Source: Escherichia phage MLP3. Taken from it: DNA of 64,000 nucleotides. The notes under the pieces were generated by a model that did no database searches, was not told where the DNA came from, and saw nothing but the letters and a program-made list of their open reading frames with translations. Position numbers and translations under genes: made by a program. Location: the sequence record OK148440; one strand, written 5' to 3'. Positions 3,539 to 56,984 of this stretch are shown here, piece after piece (positions within the stretch are counted from its first letter, which is position 1; every line of letters begins with the position of its first letter).

Positions 3539-3549
3539 TAATGTATATA
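3539..3549 (+). promoter_or_regulatory. TAATGTATATA motif about 35 nt upstream of the 1481-aa gene (candidate phage-specific promoter element)
   Basis: exact motif; recurs upstream of other genes on both strands. Confidence 0.35.
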
Positions 3550-12656: not shown

Positions 12657-12667
12657 TATATACATTA
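12657..12667 (-). promoter_or_regulatory. TAATGTATATA motif about 58 nt upstream of SSB-like gene
   Basis: exact motif on minus strand. Confidence 0.35.
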
Positions 12668-23628: not shown

Positions 23629-23640
23629 GTATATACATTT
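23629..23640 (-). promoter_or_regulatory. AAATGTATATAC motif (TAATGTATATA-like) upstream of 23265-23612 gene
   Basis: near-exact motif about 17 nt before RBS. Confidence 0.3.
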
Positions 23641-42787: not shown

Positions 42788-42863
42788 TGGTGCACCCTAC
42801 AGGACTCGAACCTGTAACCAACGACTTAGAAGGTCGCTGCTCTGTCCGTTGAGCTAAGGGTGC
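42788..42863 (-). tRNA. tRNA-Arg, anticodon UCU
   Basis: hand-folded cloverleaf: acceptor GCACCCU/AGGGUGC, D-stem GCUC/GAGC, anticodon loop CUUCUAA, T-arm ACAGG-UUCGAGU-CCUGU, encoded CCA. Confidence 0.85.
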
Positions 42864-49901: not shown

Positions 49902-50038
49902 CCGCTTTTTAATCTTTTTCGTCGTTCCCTTTATTGGGAGGATATATCAATCAGCTATATTTGATTGAAGATTAAGCGGTAAGGCTTAACTCGCGATTCA
50001 TATTTTTAAAGAGCGGTGTTTCTTACTGCTTGGTGAAC

Positions 50039-50066
50039 ATTCTATCAGAGTGTTTCACCTTGTCAA
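50039..50066 (-). promoter_or_regulatory. sigma70-like promoter (TTGACA-16 nt-TAGAAT, TG-extended) within repeat unit
   Basis: minus-strand hexamers; CCGCTCTTTAA about 22 nt downstream. Confidence 0.4.
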
Positions 50067-50197
50067 CTCTTTTTATCATCTTCTTTTATTCTATTCCCTT
50101 ATCTCGCTTGAATCTATGCGAAAGGGCAAGATGATAAATTGTTAAAGAGCGGGGCACTAAGTGCCGGATGTTTCAAGTCATCGCTGACCGTGTGAAC

Positions 50198-50225
50198 ATC
50201 TTATCATAGTGATTCGATGTGTCAA
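50198..50225 (-). promoter_or_regulatory. sigma70-like promoter (TTGACA-16 nt-TAAGAT, TG-extended) within repeat unit
   Basis: minus-strand hexamers; CCGCTCTTTAA about 46 nt downstream. Confidence 0.4.
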
Positions 50226-50286
50226 CAACTATTTTTCGATTAATGCATCTTGATAAACTAGCGACCATTAAGGCCGCTAACCTACC

Positions 50287-50487
50287 TCAGTTCATACGTT
50301 TAAAGGTTAAATCTTTATCCGTACTTACCAGCGAAAGCACCGCAATAGCTTTGCCTTTATCGGCATCGGCTACCATCTCTTTAGCTTGCTGTAGCGTACT
50401 ACCGACTATTCTCATAATCATGTTAGTAACGTTAATGCTAGTGCAAGTGATTTGCGTGTCTTTGCTTGAGAAGGTGTAAATATTCAT
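50287..50487 (-). CDS. hypothetical small protein inside early regulatory region
   Basis: internal ATG at 50487 with GAGGA RBS; lies between promoter-like repeats. Confidence 0.35.
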   Translation of the reverse strand: MNIYTFSSKDTQITCTSINVTNMIMRIVGSTLQQAKEMVADADKGKAIAVLSLVSTDKDLTFKRMN

Positions 50488-50836
50488 TGATAAATCCTCA
50501 TTATGGCATGGTTGGGAGTTTATCAAGATACACTAATCAGATTCTTAAAGAGCAAGGCTAAACATCTAGCCTATCAGGAGGTAATTTACTGCGTCACGTC
50601 CTGACAAGATTCAATATACACTATCCTAAAACCGTTGCAAGCCTTTTTCTAAAATAATTTCACTTTCTTTTAGGCATAGAGGAACACGCGCACGAATAGC
50701 ATCAAGGGAGGAAGAAAACAAGCCTTATAATCGAAAATAAGGCATACAGGAGGCGTTCTAACGAGCTAAACAGGGGCAAGATGTGCAATCACCTTAGAAA
50801 TGAAAAAAGCGCCTCAAAAGGGCGCTTAGGGAAGTT

Positions 50837-51208
50837 TTACGGATTGGTGCAAGTGCCGTTACCGGATGATATTTCGTTCATCGACTCATCAAACAACGTC
50901 ATGCTAGACCGCATCATGTGATCTATAGTGATTTGCTTTCCGGTAATTTCGTTAACAAGCATCGCATACTTGCCATCAACGACACGACGATCATAGTCAT
51001 TCAGGTCAATCAATACTACCTTGCTAGACTTCTTTCCAGTGTCGTAGTTTTCCATAAGGTAGGTGCATTGCAGACCATCAAGGCTAGACTCATTGAATAC
51101 GGCAGCATAGGACACGGAAGAAATAGCGAACAAAGCAGAACATACAGCTAATTTAATTTTCATGATCCAACCCTTAAGCGGAACGTGCAACAAAGAAAAA
51201 CAAGTCAT
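50837..51208 (-). CDS. secreted protein with signal peptide
   Basis: MKIKLAVCSALFAISSVSYAA signal-like N-terminus (likely start at internal Met). Confidence 0.45.
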   Translation of the reverse strand: MTCFSLLHVPLKGWIMKIKLAVCSALFAISSVSYAAVFNESSLDGLQCTYLMENYDTGKKSSKVVLIDLNDYDRRVVDGKYAMLVNEITGKQITIDHMMRSSMTLFDESMNEISSGNGTCTNP

Positions 51209-51255
51209 AGATAAATGCTATGATACAGAGAACTAACAGACAATGCAAAAAATAC

Positions 51256-51528
51256 TTATGTAACATTACTCACCACTTTATCTAGATGATCATTGAACGT
51301 TTCACAAATGGATTGCACTTCGTCAATATCTAATAGCAGACCGTGACGGGCAAAGAATTGAGCTAACTCAAGATAATCCGCACCAATAAGCATGACACCA
51401 TTGAAAGGGGCGATCTTAACATCTTGAGATGTTACCAATAATAAATTACCAATATCAGCAATAGCGTCATAATTCAGCGTAACGCCTACACCGTAATTGT
51501 GTGTTTCAATAATGGCAATAGTTTCCAT
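51256..51528 (-). CDS. hypothetical small protein
   Basis: ORF only. Confidence 0.4.
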   Translation of the reverse strand: METIAIIETHNYGVGVTLNYDAIADIGNLLLVTSQDVKIAPFNGVMLIGADYLELAQFFARHGLLLDIDEVQSICETFNDHLDKVVSNVT

Positions 51529-51530
51529 CG

Positions 51531-51779
51531 TTAATTATCCTCGACGGTTAGTAGTTCTTCCAGTGACAAACCGGATTTAACCAGCAAATCACGATATTCG
51601 TTAGCATCCATCGGATCGAGGCCGGATAATCGGGCAACGGTCATGCGTGCATGTGCTGAAGACAAGGAAGCTAAAGCACGGATAGGAATCAATACAAGCC
51701 CATACTTGCCACTAATAACTAAATCACCGTGCTGGATGCACATATGAGCATTTACTACGATTGCAAATGATTCGTTCAC
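51531..51779 (-). CDS. hypothetical small protein
   Basis: ORF only. Confidence 0.4.
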   Translation of the reverse strand: MNESFAIVVNAHMCIQHGDLVISGKYGLVLIPIRALASLSSAHARMTVARLSGLDPMDANEYRDLLVKSGLSLEELLTVEDN

Positions 51780-52639
51780 TTGATAGCCTCACAATTAGCA
51801 AAGTTAATAAAAGTTGTATAGACTGCTATACCGTCATTGTAGGCAGTGGTAGCGAGTACAGTTTCGCTAACATCGCCATAACTAACGAGATTAGTTACAA
51901 ACTGTAATTTCTCTTTCTCAATCTTCTGATATAGAGAATAAGTTACCATGTCATGATCACTATCAGCACGCTTTAAATTAATAACCGATTGAACGCCAGA
52001 CTTATCACCTAAGGGGGTAAGAGTGACACGCACACTACTAACACTGACGTCATTGAAACGAACACGCCAAAAGGCATCATTTCCATCACTTCCAACGTCA
52101 CGGCAAGCCATATCAGGAGCGTTTTTAAACGTGCTAACAAAGGATTGCAGACCAGTAGAAAGAGAGTCTTTTGCCTGAACATTGGTAGAGATAGCACTAA
52201 CACCGATAGCTGCAACCAGTGCATAAGAAGCCAGATTAACAGACTTCATAATCTTACTTGCAATAGAAGGCTTGCTATCTTTCTTCTTCTTGTTCTGAAT
52301 AGCTTCAACCATAGCAGACAAGCGGGATAATACTGCGTTAGCATCGCGGCAAGATTCAGGCCAATCCTTTTGAGTCCAACTATCTAAATTAGCCTGAATG
52401 TAACAGTTGATAGCATCTTGCATATCGGTAAAACCATTCTCTTTCATCGACTCTTTATCTTCACACTGTAAGGCGTTCGCGGTGGAATCAATGATGAGGC
52501 AAGCCAGAATGACAGAGTTTTTGAAGCTGGTACGAGCTTGCTGGTTATCCATCCATTGAGAAGGCACACCAACGGAAAGACCTAACGAAGAAAGTACATC
52601 ATTTGCTTGATTCAAGTATTTAATTGCTAACTTTGACAT
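51776..52639 (-). CDS. hypothetical protein with internal signal-peptide-like segment
   Basis: ATG; MKSVNLASYALVAAIGVSAISTNVQA at residues 131-156 could mark a second start. Confidence 0.45.
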   Translation of the reverse strand: MSKLAIKYLNQANDVLSSLGLSVGVPSQWMDNQQARTSFKNSVILACLIIDSTANALQCEDKESMKENGFTDMQDAINCYIQANLDSWTQKDWPESCRDANAVLSRLSAMVEAIQNKKKKDSKPSIASKIMKSVNLASYALVAAIGVSAISTNVQAKDSLSTGLQSFVSTFKNAPDMACRDVGSDGNDAFWRVRFNDVSVSSVRVTLTPLGDKSGVQSVINLKRADSDHDMVTYSLYQKIEKEKLQFVTNLVSYGDVSETVLATTAYNDGIAVYTTFINFANCEAIK

Positions 52640-52683
52640 TTCCTTATCCTTTCGGTTGATGTGAATTAAAAACTACGATTGCA

Positions 52684-52711
52684 ACTATATATTAAAGGAA
52701 AAACCTGTCAA
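52684..52711 (-). promoter_or_regulatory. sigma70-like promoter (TTGACA-16 nt-TATAGT) upstream of 51776-52639 gene
   Basis: minus-strand hexamers about 45 nt before ATG. Confidence 0.4.
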
Positions 52712-52830
52712 CCACTTATTTTCAAACTATTTCATAACTCACTGAATATAAAAGGAATTTAATTTACTAAACTTTCTTGTTCAGAGATACAGCTTACCAA
52801 ATAGATGTTATTTTATAACACTTACAGAAC

Positions 52831-53919
52831 GGGTAGCAGACCAACGGGATAGATAGATGGGTAAGACGTGCCGCATAGGTTAGCCAATGGGTAAGAAGCC
52901 TAACGAGGAAGGGGAAACGGGTAGGATATAATGTAAGTTAGTTACAGTTAACAGGTCAGACCATGCGGTAATAAATTACCAGTCAATTCGCTACTATCGT
53001 AGCTCATATCAAATTCCTACTCATCAAAGATAAAAGAAAAAGAAAAAAGAAACGCTGAAAAAGAAAAGAATAAAAGAAAGAATAAAAATAATAACTAAAG
53101 TAAACAACTACCAGTCTAAACATACATACATCAATAATCCACTCATGAATAATCACATAAGTTATTACATTCAAACTATGGGGGATGGTCATCAATGGTA
53201 TAGTTTACATAGGTTATCATTAATGTTCTTACTATTAATACCGGTTAGTTATAGTCTTCTATTAGTATGCCTGTACAGTGCTAGCCTTTCATCCCTTCTC
53301 AACATGAGTAAGAGAAATACGGGTAGGAAATCACTGGTTAGATATACATGGGTAAATAATCAATGTGTAATATCAATGGGTAGGTTATTTATGGGTAGGT
53401 ATGCCACTGAACGCAGGTAGGGCAAGGCTTAGAGCTTAAAGGCTGATTGATTTCCTAAAGGCAATTGCATTGGTAATAACCCTTTTTTAAATGAGGACTC
53501 CCCCCTTTTAGGAAACGCGCTCGGAGCGGCTAGGTCCATCCGGTCAAATTGAAATTTTAAACTCTTATATATAAGAATAAGGAACTATTTTATGTGGAAG
53601 ATTAAGTTACTAATTAAGCAATTCAAATGTCAACACGAATACTACCCGATACGGATATCGAGAGGAGATGAACGGTTACACGCTTATTACAAGAGTACAT
53701 GGAGATGTGCAGACTGTGGTAAGGTTAGGAATAGTAAATGGGTGGATAGACCATAGAGAGTATGGGGTGGCCTTAACATGACATGGCCTTAATGGGTAAG
53801 CACTACTTCGTAGTGACGATGCCTTAATGTGGGGTAGCCTTTATGGAGTCCCCTTTACATCAGCGTACACGGGTTAGTACACGGGTGGGCCTTTAGATGA
53901 GTACGCCTTTATGGGTTGA
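52831..53919 (+). repeat. iteron-like array of at least 15 GGGTAGG / ATGGGTARG repeats in divergent intergenic region
   Basis: repeats all in plus orientation; proximal copies extend to GCCTTWATGGGT. Confidence 0.5.
53592..53756 (+). CDS. small zinc-ribbon-like protein (54 aa), below the ORF-track cutoff
   Basis: my translation MWKIKLLIKQFKCQHEYY...CADCGKV; AAGGAA RBS. Confidence 0.35.
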   Translation: MWKIKLLIKQFKCQHEYYPIRISRGDERLHAYYKSTWRCADCGKVRNSKWVDRP

Positions 53920-53948
53920 TCACTCTCGTTTATCAGAGGAGAATAAAT

Positions 53949-54197
53949 ATGTTTCTAGACTTTTTATCAGAGGTACTTCCCTACTTCCGCACTGAGAAAT
54001 GTGCATTTGTATTTGATGAAGGGGAGGAGTCAATGACTTGTTTGGGTAGATTGGTAGACCTAGACGACGATGAAGATTTTGATGCTACGATGGACATTAG
54101 TTCATTGGGCTGGTTGTACATGAGATGCTTTGTAAGTTACAAGGCTGAAACGTTTAAAGATTATCGCTATAGCGCTGAAGGAGAGAATGATGAATAA
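53949..54197 (+). CDS. hypothetical acidic protein
   Basis: ATG at 53949 with AGAGGAG RBS (table start is TTG at 53916). Confidence 0.45.
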   Translation: MFLDFLSEVLPYFRTEKCAFVFDEGEESMTCLGRLVDLDDDEDFDATMDISSLGWLYMRCFVSYKAETFKDYRYSAEGENDE

Positions 54198-54843
54198 CAT
54201 GACAGGAACTAATACACTGAATGCAATCTATGAGAACATGGGATGTAAAGGCGAAGTTACTTACAATGGTTCACTCCGTCCTTTATCAGAGGACACTTTC
54301 TATCTGAATCGTGTTCATGAAACTACTGGAGGTAAATCCCGAGTTGAGATGGTAAAACAACTGGCTCATGGTTCTGTGTACGGTTATGCTCCTTCAACCC
54401 GTGAAATATGGGAAGGTTTGATTCCTCGTACAGAAGCTAAAGATGTGAAAGACTATTTCACTGTGGCAAAAGAAGTTAAACGTAAGTGTCCATCCAATTT
54501 AGAAGTTGTTCCGTATGTAGCTGACAAACATGCACACCTACCGGACTATGCCCGTGAGATGATTGAGATGATTGAAGAAGCCGAGTATGAAGCTCTGAAT
54601 AATTATTTAAATTCAAAAGATCAATGGTCACGTAATGTAGTAATTGATGAAGAAGGTAATGAAGTAGTTACGTGGGTACATGCTAGTGAACAAGCTCTGG
54701 ACCCCGAGCTTGAAGAATACAAAAAATTTTTGGCGTCCTCTTCTTTTGATGTAGAGAATGACAAATCTGTTCCAGTTAGCTGGGAAGGTGAAACTGTAGC
54801 TCTCCAGACTTTGTTCAACCTACACGTAGGTGATGTAGATTAA
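54187..54843 (+). CDS. hypothetical protein
   Basis: ATG with GAAGGAGAG RBS; 218 aa. Confidence 0.5.
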   Translation: MMNNMTGTNTLNAIYENMGCKGEVTYNGSLRPLSEDTFYLNRVHETTGGKSRVEMVKQLAHGSVYGYAPSTREIWEGLIPRTEAKDVKDYFTVAKEVKRKCPSNLEVVPYVADKHAHLPDYAREMIEMIEEAEYEALNNYLNSKDQWSRNVVIDEEGNEVVTWVHASEQALDPELEEYKKFLASSSFDVENDKSVPVSWEGETVALQTLFNLHVGDVD

Positions 54844-54854
54844 TAAAAGGTGTT

Positions 54855-54880
54855 GCCTCCTCTCGTGGGAGGCTTTTTGT
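54855..54880 (+). terminator. rho-independent terminator
   Basis: GCCTCC-TCTCGTG-GGAGGC followed by T5. Confidence 0.5.
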
Positions 54881-54908
54881 TATAACGATAATGTAGAAGG
54901 AGTATAAG

Positions 54909-55376
54909 ATGTTTGGAGAAAAAGGAGAACTCACGCCTGCACAGGTAGCTGAGATTACAGGAAGACTGCCCGGAGTAACGGAAGAACTTGAATCCAAGGG
55001 CATGGAACCAAGCACAGGGAAGTTTACTAAAGGTAATAAATTTGGACGTCCCAAAGGTAGTAGAGGTAAATTGACACAGCTCATGCTCGATCGTGTTGCT
55101 GCTAGTCATCTGTCTCCCGATGAAGTGTTGATTCAGATTTATGAAGATCCAAATATTCCACCCGATCTTAGATTCAAGGCTGCAAGTAAAGTCGCTGATC
55201 TGGTATATCCTAAGGCAGCTTCTGTTGAGGTTAAGATTGAGGAAGAGAATGTAATCAATGAAGAATCACTGAACGCACAGATTCGAGACTTCTTGACTGG
55301 TGCACTGAAAGTGGATGTGCTACCTCCAGAGGACTCTGAGGACGCTGAAAAGGAGGAGGAAGCGGACGAGAGTTAA
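54909..55376 (+). CDS. terminase small subunit candidate
   Basis: 155-aa acidic C-terminal protein immediately upstream of large terminase; positional inference only. Confidence 0.4.
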   Translation: MFGEKGELTPAQVAEITGRLPGVTEELESKGMEPSTGKFTKGNKFGRPKGSRGKLTQLMLDRVAASHLSPDEVLIQIYEDPNIPPDLRFKAASKVADLVYPKAASVEVKIEEENVINEESLNAQIRDFLTGALKVDVLPPEDSEDAEKEEEADES

Positions 55377-55442
55377 TAGGAATAGAGGGGAGGGTTCTTT
55401 TCGCGAGGGATCTCTCCCTTTTTTATTTTATTGGAGGAATAT

Positions 55443-56984
55443 ATGTCGTTAGATAAAGAAATCTATGAAGCTCTAACTGGAGACAAGTTGAGTATAGAGG
55501 AAAAGAAAGCTTTGCTCAATATGTTAAAAGAAAGGGACCAGTGGAGAAAATATAACAAGATGTTGGCTTTTAAAGCTTACGACTTTCAGAAGAAATTCTA
55601 TGCAGCAGGGTTGAAGCATCGCTTTCGATTCCTGTGCGCAGCTAACCGTGTTGGTAAATCTTACAGCGAGGCATACGAGTTTGCTTGTCATGTCACAGGT
55701 CGCTATCCAACTTGGTGGACAGGTTACAGATTTAATCGACCCATATTGGCTTGGGCAGTAGGGATTACAGGGGACTCTACAAGAAAGGTATTGCAAAAGG
55801 AATTGTTTGGAACACCTATCGGAAAGGATATGAATCTAATAGGAACAGGTGTTATTCCTCGTGATGCTATCGTATTGGACACGATAGAACGAGATGGGAA
55901 CAAATTACAGATTGTACAAATTAAGCATCAAAACGCGAGAGGCGAGTTTGACGGTTTAAGTACATTAGAGTTCCGTTCTACCCAACAGGGTGAACATACA
56001 TTGATGGGTGCTACAGTTGATTATATTTGGCTGGACGAAGAAGATCCATATGAATCTATGGCAATCTTCTCTCAGTGCGTAACACGTACACTTACAACTA
56101 AAGGTTTAGTTACTATTACAGCTACACCAGAGAACGGTTTAACAGAGCTGGTGGATAAGTTTATGAAAGGTGAAGGAGATGAGAACACAGGTTCTCTGTA
56201 TTTCCAGAATGCTTCTTGGTGGGATGCTCATGTAGATTTAGGTGGACATATCACTGACCAAGATATTAAAGACATGACTGAAGGTATCCCAACATGGCAG
56301 TTAGAGATGCGTTCAAAAGGTATGCCGTTGCTTGGTTCTGGTTTGATTTATGATGTATCAGATGACATGATTAAGTGTGATCCCTTTGAGATACCTGATA
56401 CGTGGAAACGTGTTTGTGCTATTGATATTGGTATCGATCACCCGACAGCCGCTGTTTGGACAGCATACGATGCTAACACTGATACGATTTATGTTTATGA
56501 CTGCTATAAAGAAGGTGGATTTACTCCGGTGTACCATGCACCAGCTATTAATGGTCGTGGTCAGTGGATTCCAGTTATTCTTCCTCACGATGCCGATAAT
56601 ATTGAGAAGGGAAGTGGTTCGTCTGTTGCTCAATTCTATAAGAATGCAGGGGTTAATGTACAGAGTGAGACCTTCTACAACAAGATTGGAATGGATGGTA
56701 AGAAGAACTTCTTTGTAGAGCCGGGAATTACTGATATTCGTGAACGTATGATGTCAGGTCGTTTTAAAATCTTTAACATTGCTTCGTGTGCTAAACTCTT
56801 TGAAGAGAAAGCTCGCTATCACCGTAAGGTTGGCAAGATTGTTAAGGAACATGATGACTTGATGGATGCTATGCGATATTCAGCTTGTTCTGTAACACAT
56901 CGTGGACGTAGTAAGCATGATGCTAGTTATGGTAGTTCATCGCTTTATCAAGACAATATTAACAGATGGAATTCGAGTTACTAA
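55443..56984 (+). CDS. terminase large subunit
   Basis: Walker A AANRVGKS, Walker B-like IWLDEED, C-terminal nuclease-like region; ATG at 55443 with GGAGG RBS (table start is TTG at 55431). Confidence 0.85.
   Translation: MSLDKEIYEALTGDKLSIEEKKALLNMLKERDQWRKYNKMLAFKAYDFQKKFYAAGLKHRFRFLCAANRVGKSYSEAYEFACHVTGRYPTWWTGYRFNRPILAWAVGITGDSTRKVLQKELFGTPIGKDMNLIGTGVIPRDAIVLDTIERDGNKLQIVQIKHQNARGEFDGLSTLEFRSTQQGEHTLMGATVDYIWLDEEDPYESMAIFSQCVTRTLTTKGLVTITATPENGLTELVDKFMKGEGDENTGSLYFQNASWWDAHVDLGGHITDQDIKDMTEGIPTWQLEMRSKGMPLLGSGLIYDVSDDMIKCDPFEIPDTWKRVCAIDIGIDHPTAAVWTAYDANTDTIYVYDCYKEGGFTPVYHAPAINGRGQWIPVILPHDADNIEKGSGSSVAQFYKNAGVNVQSETFYNKIGMDGKKNFFVEPGITDIRERMMSGRFKIFNIASCAKLFEEKARYHRKVGKIVKEHDDLMDAMRYSACSVTHRGRSKHDASYGSSSLYQDNINRWNSSY

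Follow-up and report, generated by a model that had tools for sequence, protein, structure and literature searches.

Short one-strand repeats at the concatemer junction of a phiEco32-like coliphage: candidate sites for recognition of the genome ends

Introduction

Between a leftward gene that ends at 52639 and a rightward gene that starts at 53949, the DNA of Escherichia phage MLP3 (sequence record OK148440) carries many short direct repeats. What reads these repeats, and for which process? We analyzed a 64,000-nucleotide stretch of the record, given 5′ to 3′ on one strand; we call this whole stretch the window and count positions from its first letter. A prediction made earlier from the sequence alone (the original prediction) described the repeats as an iteron-like array in a divergent intergenic region, and expected arrayed protein-binding sites for an origin, a transcriptional switch or packaging recognition. 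The coordinates of the flanking genes and their layout are as it described. However, the region is not a mere spacer, because it holds the genome ends with a predicted direct terminal repeat (DTR) at 53283-53531. How the concatemer junction is recognized and the terminal repeat duplicated in phages with a short DTR is poorly understood, even for T7.

A one-strand repeat in three clusters

In the region 52640-53950, A[CT]GGGT occurs 13 times on the plus strand and never on the minus strand, the shorter A[CT]GGG 16 times versus none, and GGGT 15 times versus twice. The plus-strand GGGT sequences begin at 52831, 52859, 52889, 52919, 53321, 53350, 53378, 53393, 53740, 53765, 53794, 53832, 53871, 53883 and 53913, within 1-2 nt of their predicted sites. 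The earlier list had 17 copies; the two that are not GGGT, at 52846 (ACGGGAT) and 53414 (AGGTAGGG), are degenerate. The common orientation, which had been claimed, was found, and so was an excess over composition. In 2000 dinucleotide-preserving shuffles of the region, A[CT]GGGT appeared 0.89 times on average and five times at most, and the window-wide density gives an expectation of 0.64 per 1311 nt per strand. Other 1311-nt stretches of the window contain at most two copies on the plus strand or three on the minus strand. When the longer pattern [AC][CT]GGGT[AG][AG]G was used, eight of the nine plus-strand matches of the 64 kb fell in this region, and the minus strand gave none. In an unbiased k-mer count of the region, ATGGGT(A) likewise came first and had zero reverse-complement copies. 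Outside this region the window showed no comparable AYGGG cluster, and neither did the roughly 12 kb that a close relative has and the window does not. Information content is limited to 7-9 positions (A-Y-G-G-G-T-A-R-G), and the flanks are at background. The motif can be written AYGGGKA(RG), with AYGGG as its invariant core. The GGGT repeats are confirmed as a real, non-random and constrained feature of one strand.

The copies form three clusters on the plus strand. Cluster 1 (52829-52925) lies in the unique right end of the genome, and its strong copies at 52829, 52857, 52887 and 52917 are spaced by 28, 30 and 30 bp; degenerate half-period copies include that at 52844, whose GGG is the one at 52846. 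Cluster 2 (53319-53399) lies inside the predicted DTR with copies at 53319, 53348, 53376 and 53391 (spacing 29, 28 and 15 bp), and the degenerate AGGTAGGG follows at 53415-53422. Cluster 3 (53738-53919) lies in the unique left end, between an open reading frame (ORF) for a 54-residue zinc-ribbon protein and the next gene. It has AYGGG at 53738, 53762, 53792, 53869, 53881 and 53911, plus the GGGT at 53832, and its first copy falls within the last codons of the ORF. The longer form predicted for the copies nearest the 53949 gene is present: GCCTTWATGGGT occurs exactly at 53786 and 53905 and with an insertion at 53821, and cluster 3 contains three copies of a 26-nt composite unit. Counted by place, four AYGGG copies are in the DTR, 5-6 leftward and 6-7 rightward. 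The four to five copies of cluster 1 are found about 360-450 bp to the left of the DTR, and the roughly seven of cluster 3 are 210-380 bp to the right. In addition, a solitary copy, ATGGGGGAT (53178-53186, plus strand), lies about 100 bp left of the DTR and is conserved in most relatives examined, in both of the clades described below. The main spacing is 28-30 bp (about 29 bp), with 12-15 bp locally (53376/53391, 53869/53881 and the degenerate copy at 52844). The degenerate half-period copies point to an underlying period of about 14.5 bp.

The predicted genome ends

The window belongs to a Kuravirus (phiEco32-like coliphage, Gordonclarkvirinae). Over the junction stretch, the closest records are Bas86, Bas87, BS3, TH34 and NC-B (86-95% identity), and many relatives' records start or stop within this region. 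Short, blunt direct terminal repeats are established in the group by published work on phiEco32, SU10, Paul and YF01. The records of phiEco32 and NC-B have an exact terminal repeat at both ends (193 bp and 250 bp, respectively); both repeats open with AGCCTTTC and close with G(C/A)GGCT, and in the alignment the window matches these sequences at 53283 and 53531. The SU7 record also opens with AGCCTTTC, and the HC-25922 record starts at the same base as window position 53283. This homology places a DTR of 249 bp at 53283-53531, and suggests that the "intergenic region" is the concatemer junction and holds the physical genome ends. The DTR length differs by clade: about 249 bp in that of the window (clade A) versus 193 bp in that of phiEco32 (clade B).

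Only two CTAG sequences occur in the 1.3-kb region, and both sit exactly on the predicted DTR boundaries (53281-53284, GCT^AGCC; 53530-53533, GGCT^AGG). The pattern is kept in every relative examined. These positions suggest that the terminase cuts within CTAG at each end, namely between 53282 and 53283 and between 53531 and 53532. Cluster 2 would then start 37 nt right of the left cut.

It should be mentioned that Kuravirus termini are inconsistent in the databases, and several records of therapeutic candidates are permuted or have inconsistent repeat annotation. The published 53-bp DTR of SU7 opens at the conserved left boundary; because homology predicts about 250 bp, the SU7 repeat is probably truncated. 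The 275-bp repeat_region of PAS59 spans another interval, roughly window 53083-53336.

Conservation of the repeats among relatives

Each of 15 Kuravirus-like junctions carries 11-16 AYGGG copies on the plus strand and none or one on the minus strand, in the same three places; cluster 1 is kept in 15 relatives with a spacing of 27-31 bp. Two dialects are found. Clade A uses about six copies of ATGGGTA and two or three of ACGGGTA, and clade B uses six copies of ACGGGGA and one to three of ACGGGTA, with half-period spacings of 14 and 13 bp. In the genomes with a tabulated DTR (the window, phiEco32 and YF01), the 37-nt offset of the first DTR copy and the next spacing of 29 bp are identical, and the positions in the other relatives are consistent with this offset. 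Between the clades the spacers cannot be aligned, while the repeat cores persist. Such a dialect shift at fixed positions among unalignable spacers is expected from selection on a protein-recognition core.

Constraint was also measured within clade A. In eight genomes, which are related and hence not independent samples, one of 49 core columns is variable, compared with 196 of the 720 remaining non-coding columns (Fisher p = 1e-5); for the DTR half alone, the counts are 0 of 20 and 32 of 123. Copy number varies: TH42 has an extra copy in its DTR, and cluster 3 carries three to seven copies. In the literature that we searched, which did not include the two primary phiEco32 papers (Savalia 2008; Pavlova 2012), no description of the Kuravirus AYGGGKA repeats was found. 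Similarity to the junction signal was not found in Escherichia coli genomes and plasmids, and satellites that copy the signal are therefore unsupported.

A second repeat family and the C/T-rich box

The array had been regarded as a single series of GGGT repeats. The repeats are there, but cluster 3 consists largely of a second one-strand family, (G/C)CCTTWA, whose plus-strand copies at 53770, 53786, 53821, 53837, 53851, 53889 and 53905 are separated by 14-16 bp or multiples of this distance and are interleaved with the AYGGG copies. Together, cluster 3 and this family occupy 207-388 nt right of the right cut. Two inverted copies, TTAAAGGC (53437-53443) and CTAAAGGC (53456-53462), are on the minus strand inside the DTR; in nearly all clade-A genomes they are at -94 and -75 from the right cut. 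All 13 genomes tested have five to eight GCCTTWA copies 220-375 bp right of the DTR, and one or two inverted copies in it. Unlike the GGGT family, the GCCTTWA family is unchanged between the clades. The DTR itself opens with AGCCTTTC.

The most conserved part of the DTR, in our alignment as well as in the SU10 and YF01 papers, is a C3T6-N10-C6T4 box at 53480-53511 (plus strand). The YF01 paper gives the conserved DTR positions as about 130-170. The SU10 paper locates a CCCTTTTTTA-N10-CCC...TTTTA element 21 nt from the end of the terminal repeat, which is the element at 53480-53511 here, and its authors report heterogeneity of T-run length at the C/T-rich box. An exact scan of IMG/VR for the DTR box gave phiEco32 and one further contig only. 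Similar C5T4-5 boxes adjoin other one-strand short repeats in two more distant relatives, PJNS034 (about 3930) and SeKF_80 (about 1190).

Comparison with known systems

T7 reportedly carries short repeats (SRL/SRR) and CCTAAAG heptamers in its 160-bp terminal repeat, as Dunn and Studier are said to have noted in 1983. In our re-measurement, one strand of T7 has 13 copies of CCTAAAG and the other has none. Three of the copies fall within the terminal repeat and the others on both sides of it, with a period of 13 bp. The likeness to the Kuravirus junction is close. In both, the unit is of heptamer size and restricted to one strand (13/0 in T7; 13-16/0 here), copies lie within the terminal repeat and in both unique flanks, and promoters are just inside the repeats; both phages are lytic podophages with a short exact DTR that package from concatemers. 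In contrast, AYGGGKA is unrelated to CCTAAAG, the spacing here is mainly 28-30 bp with half-period copies, and GCCTTWA is an additional family. Moreover, T7 has its own polymerase whereas host polymerase and a phage sigma factor are used here, and the terminases differ too. The junction arrays are thus much like the short-repeat plan of T7 with another motif and another period, and T7 is the closest analogue tested.

The lambda cosB R-sites and the P1 pac hexamers are binding sites, beside the cut, for the small terminase subunit and PacA, respectively; in P1 pac, 6-bp units are grouped on both sides of the cut. The junction resembles them in having several short repeated sites near the cleavage, on the terminase-gene side that is packaged first. 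The differences are that two cuts 249 bp apart produce a DTR here, instead of a cos or headful pac, that the arrays reach about 450 bp from the cuts, and that an IHF site and involvement of Dam (GATC) are absent. By analogy, AYGGGKA sites may be regarded only as candidate binding sites for a small terminase.

PJNS034 (large terminase 59% identical) also bears one-strand short repeats, but of other sequences: five copies each of TGGCATG and TCACAC(G) stand ahead of its packaging genes, at places that look analogous. At the junction of Salmonella phage SeKF_80 we did not see a clear analogue.

Interpretation of the repeats

Arrayed protein-binding sites, as originally proposed, are a reasonable reading of repeats that are non-random, constrained and confined to one strand, and of the three functions offered, packaging is favored. 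The feature is genuine and conserved, yet it is the kind of thing to be expected at a DTR junction. We propose, with a probability of roughly 0.4, that the repeats are binding sites for the machinery that recognizes and processes the genome ends for packaging. In this model, a sequence-specific phage protein would bind the copies as monomers, head to tail, and would assemble co-operatively across sites about 29 bp apart. The assembly would help the maturation and packaging machinery to locate the junction, to set the direction of packaging (rightward, from the terminase-gene end), and to cut at both CT^AG boundaries, so that each packaged genome receives the full terminal repeat. Because the terminase genes are on the left-end side, packaging should start at the left cut and run where the repeats point.

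Which protein might read the repeats? The putative small terminase (54909-55376, annotated so in YF01) shares 91% identity across the two dialect clades, and its N-terminus has hardly changed. Therefore, co-evolution of the AYGGGKA repeats with this protein is unsupported, and the invariant GCCTTWA would be the better candidate for its site. AYGGGKA may instead be read by a more divergent early protein, for which the 54-residue zinc-ribbon protein and a 218-residue gp5-like protein are candidates. An AT-hook-like GRP motif, KFGRPKGSRGK, is present in the putative small terminase, and the few differences between the clades are clustered just before it (residues 29-40).

Several points weigh against a role of the repeats in packaging. 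Within the DTR, conservation is highest in the C/T-rich box and not in the repeats, and the box could therefore be the true terminase signal. The termini are placed here by homology, and the repeat annotations of SU7 (53 bp) and PAS59 (275 bp) are discordant with them. A small terminase that reads AYGGGKA would have to accept the T/G and C/T changes. The nearest cut is about 360-450 bp away from cluster 1, which stands beside an A-rich tract, an arrangement equally suited to an origin. In addition, clusters 1 and 2 each have a sigma-70 early promoter about 120-230 bp downstream, as would suit control of transcription. In LUZ24, which has a DTR and a large terminase 38% identical, a comparable one-strand heptamer array was not found; a T7-type array is thus not universal among DTR podophages. 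The role of the T7 short repeats, in question since 1983, is itself not known to have been established.

A narrower proposal is that the arrays constitute a directional "end code", read by a co-evolving phage protein other than the conserved small terminase, which would define the start of the DTR and the direction of packaging. We consider this unlikely, though worth stating for its consequences. If it were true, the ATGGGTA and ACGGGGA dialects would represent a specificity swap between near-identical packaging modules, and the Kuraviruses would offer a tractable second system for the role of short-repeat arrays at DTR junctions.

A replication origin is a still weaker proposal. An initiator would bind cluster 1, and maybe cluster 2, and the conserved motif TAATGTAAG (52929-52937, plus strand) together with the A-rich tract would serve as a transcription-activated zone of unwinding or priming, as in T7 origins (promoter and AT-rich region) or lambda ori (repeats and AT-rich region). 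The layout of cluster 1 fits: no more than about 100 bp beyond its four or five direct repeats there is a polypurine tract (53020-53105, plus strand) of about 22% GC and strong A skew (AT skew +0.59), and TAATGTAAG, of the AATGTA promoter type, is directed into this tract. T7 also has secondary origins near end-proximal phage promoters. The original prediction called the array iteron-like, which did not hold. Origin iterons (lambda ori, P1, plasmid Rep) have a conserved unit of 17-22 bp at a spacing of about 22 bp. The junction repeats share with them the direct, single orientation and, for cluster 1 only, an adjacent AT-rich tract (clusters 2 and 3 adjoin none); their unit is 7-9 bp at 28-30 bp spacing with unconserved flanks, and further copies occur inside the terminal repeat and at the opposite end of the genome. 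Consensus DnaA boxes and IHF sites (TTWTNCACA, WATCAANNNNTTR) are absent from 52640-53950. The seven flanking ORFs matched only families of unknown function in Pfam and PHROGs, with no Rep-like domain among them; the search for an initiator was confined to these ORFs. Classical iterons were rejected on these grounds. Furthermore, the phiEco32 clade has lost the promoter motif as well as part of cluster 1, and an origin leaves cluster 3 and the fixed-offset DTR copies unexplained.

Control of the early promoters is about as improbable as an origin. On this account, a phage or host protein on clusters 1 and 2 activates, insulates or later shuts off two promoters. The first (TTGACA-16-TATAGT, 52684-52711, minus strand; scan score 11/12) is a sigma-70 early promoter homologous to the SU10 promoter upstream of CDS125, and serves the leftward early genes. 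The second is a sigma-70-like promoter (53544-53578, plus strand), in which the scan gave a weaker site at 53549-53578; it is homologous to the SU10 "upstream region of CDS1" and precedes the zinc-ribbon ORF and later genes. In the window, about 120-230 bp separate each of clusters 1 and 2 from one of these promoters downstream of it, and the first three copies of the two clusters share internal spacing; phiEco32 looks alike, though its promoters were not located. However, the clusters are far from the promoters for a bacterial operator or activator, the orientation of the motif is opposite relative to the two promoters, and cluster 3 is downstream, not upstream, of the rightward one. The fixed offset is measured from the terminus, not from a promoter. 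Early shut-off in the phiEco32 group is already explained by gp79 and gp36 (PMC12276001).

The repeats themselves are not promoters. The sigma-70 scan matched only the known early promoter and the weaker site at 53549-53578; beyond these it gave nothing in the region, and no terminators were found. The phage-sigma motif of the gp36 type is AATGTA, centered at about -11.5 in phiEco32 (PMC12276001). True TAATGTA(T/G)A sites are conserved elsewhere, and none of them has GGG; AATGTA is absent from all repeat cores and occurs only in the separate motif at 52929-52935. Some repeat copies read TAATGGGTA and share TAATG with the phage-sigma motif, and the copy at 52917 abuts a true TAATGTA. The fusion of one repeat to a TATAAT, reported earlier, is present as GGGTAGGATATAATG at 52919-52933, but it is better read as part of this TAATGTA.

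It is more doubtful still that the repeats act during DNA entry, by binding a protein, either ejected or supplied by the host, that would hold, protect or position the right end as it leads. If the right end enters first, the leading 830 bp (DTR, A-rich tract and cluster 1) would precede the first inward promoter, which is about 820-850 bp from the predicted right terminus. In T7, about 850 bp of the left end enters independently of transcription, and the order from that end (terminal repeat, short repeats, promoters) is the same. However, the leading role of the right end is presumed in this group, and the model has no use for cluster 3 at the opposite end. Moreover, Chi (GCTGGTGG) and exact KOPS (GGGNAGGG) both occur zero times in 52640-53950, and KOPS is absent from the whole window and clade B, with one to three copies in some clade-A relatives.

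That the repeats have no function and are decaying remnants of tandem duplication or slippage in a recombination-prone end region is just as improbable: variable copy number (the extra copy of TH42, the three to seven copies of cluster 3) and the difference in DTR length between the clades (193 versus 249 bp) agree with it, but the cores are kept while the spacers diverge past alignment, the core columns are significantly less variable than their neighbors, and the one-strand orientation is strict with equal offsets in 15 genomes.

A functional RNA or a structured strand was ruled out by three results. The Rfam scan of 50000-56000 gave only a sub-threshold Termite-leu match (E = 0.25), which lies beyond the feature at 55381-55470. 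No structure signal was seen when cluster 3 was folded as RNA (z = +0.85) or the DTR as single-stranded DNA (z = +0.23). A Fis-like pattern is also absent from 52640-53950.

The junction offers a second phage lineage, unrelated to T7 but with T7-like architecture, in which termini have been mapped in the group, two motif dialects exist and an invariant family adjoins them. The dialects and junction fragments are clear reagents for binding and packaging assays. In practice, the analysis locates the genome ends of the group, with both predicted cuts at CT^AG and, by homology, a DTR of 249 bp in the clade of the window.

Promoters, flanking genes and minor observations

The motif TAATGTAAG, which overlaps the TATAAT, is a candidate rightward phage-sigma promoter of the gp36 type with an AATGTA core. 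It is conserved in clade A and deleted in phiEco32. It points rightward to the genome end, into the A-rich tract, and its position resembles that of T7 phiOR or A0. The A-rich tract, about 100 bp right of cluster 1, varies in length among relatives.

Table S2 of the SU10 paper lists the phage-sigma promoters of that phage. In the window, TAATGTA(T/G)A motifs are found at 3539, 12730, 54889 and 62333 on the plus strand, all but 12730 matching SU10 promoters, and at 12667 and 19239 on the minus strand, both matching; a AAATGTATA variant at 23640 (minus strand) also matches. The matched sites are the middle and late promoters of SU10. Their conservation shows that the transcription scheme of phiEco32 has been retained here. 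The genes that run rightward from 53949 had been called late. By homology with SU10 and phiEco32 they are instead an early, sigma-70-driven unit, and the first phage-sigma late promoter is that at 54889.

The embedded ORF at 53592-53756 (plus strand), which had been predicted to encode a 54-residue zinc-ribbon protein, is present with its CxH...CxxC pattern and is conserved in relatives. Its product belongs to phrog_7696 (unknown function) and is about 70% identical between the dialect clades. The ORF is conserved in phiEco32, YF01, MN03 and Bas91; the phiEco32 reference annotates overlapping gp1-gp3 there instead. Proteins like gp4 and gp5 are encoded at 53949-54843. The gp5-like protein (218 residues, 54187-54843) is annotated "ABC transporter" via PHROG 12176, which is probably a misnomer. 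Its N-terminal stretch of approximately 90 residues hardly aligns between the clades, and identity in the C-terminal domain is about 54%. An AlphaFold model built from the single sequence of this protein was unusable (pLDDT 36). A PDB sequence search with three flanking proteins gave no match, and the putative small terminase had none in Pfam or PDB. The large terminase subunit is encoded at 55431-56984, and the terminase genes are 1.4-2.1 kb right of the junction. A tRNA-Arg gene (anticodon TCT) lies at 42788-42863 on the minus strand, as reported for other Kuraviruses.

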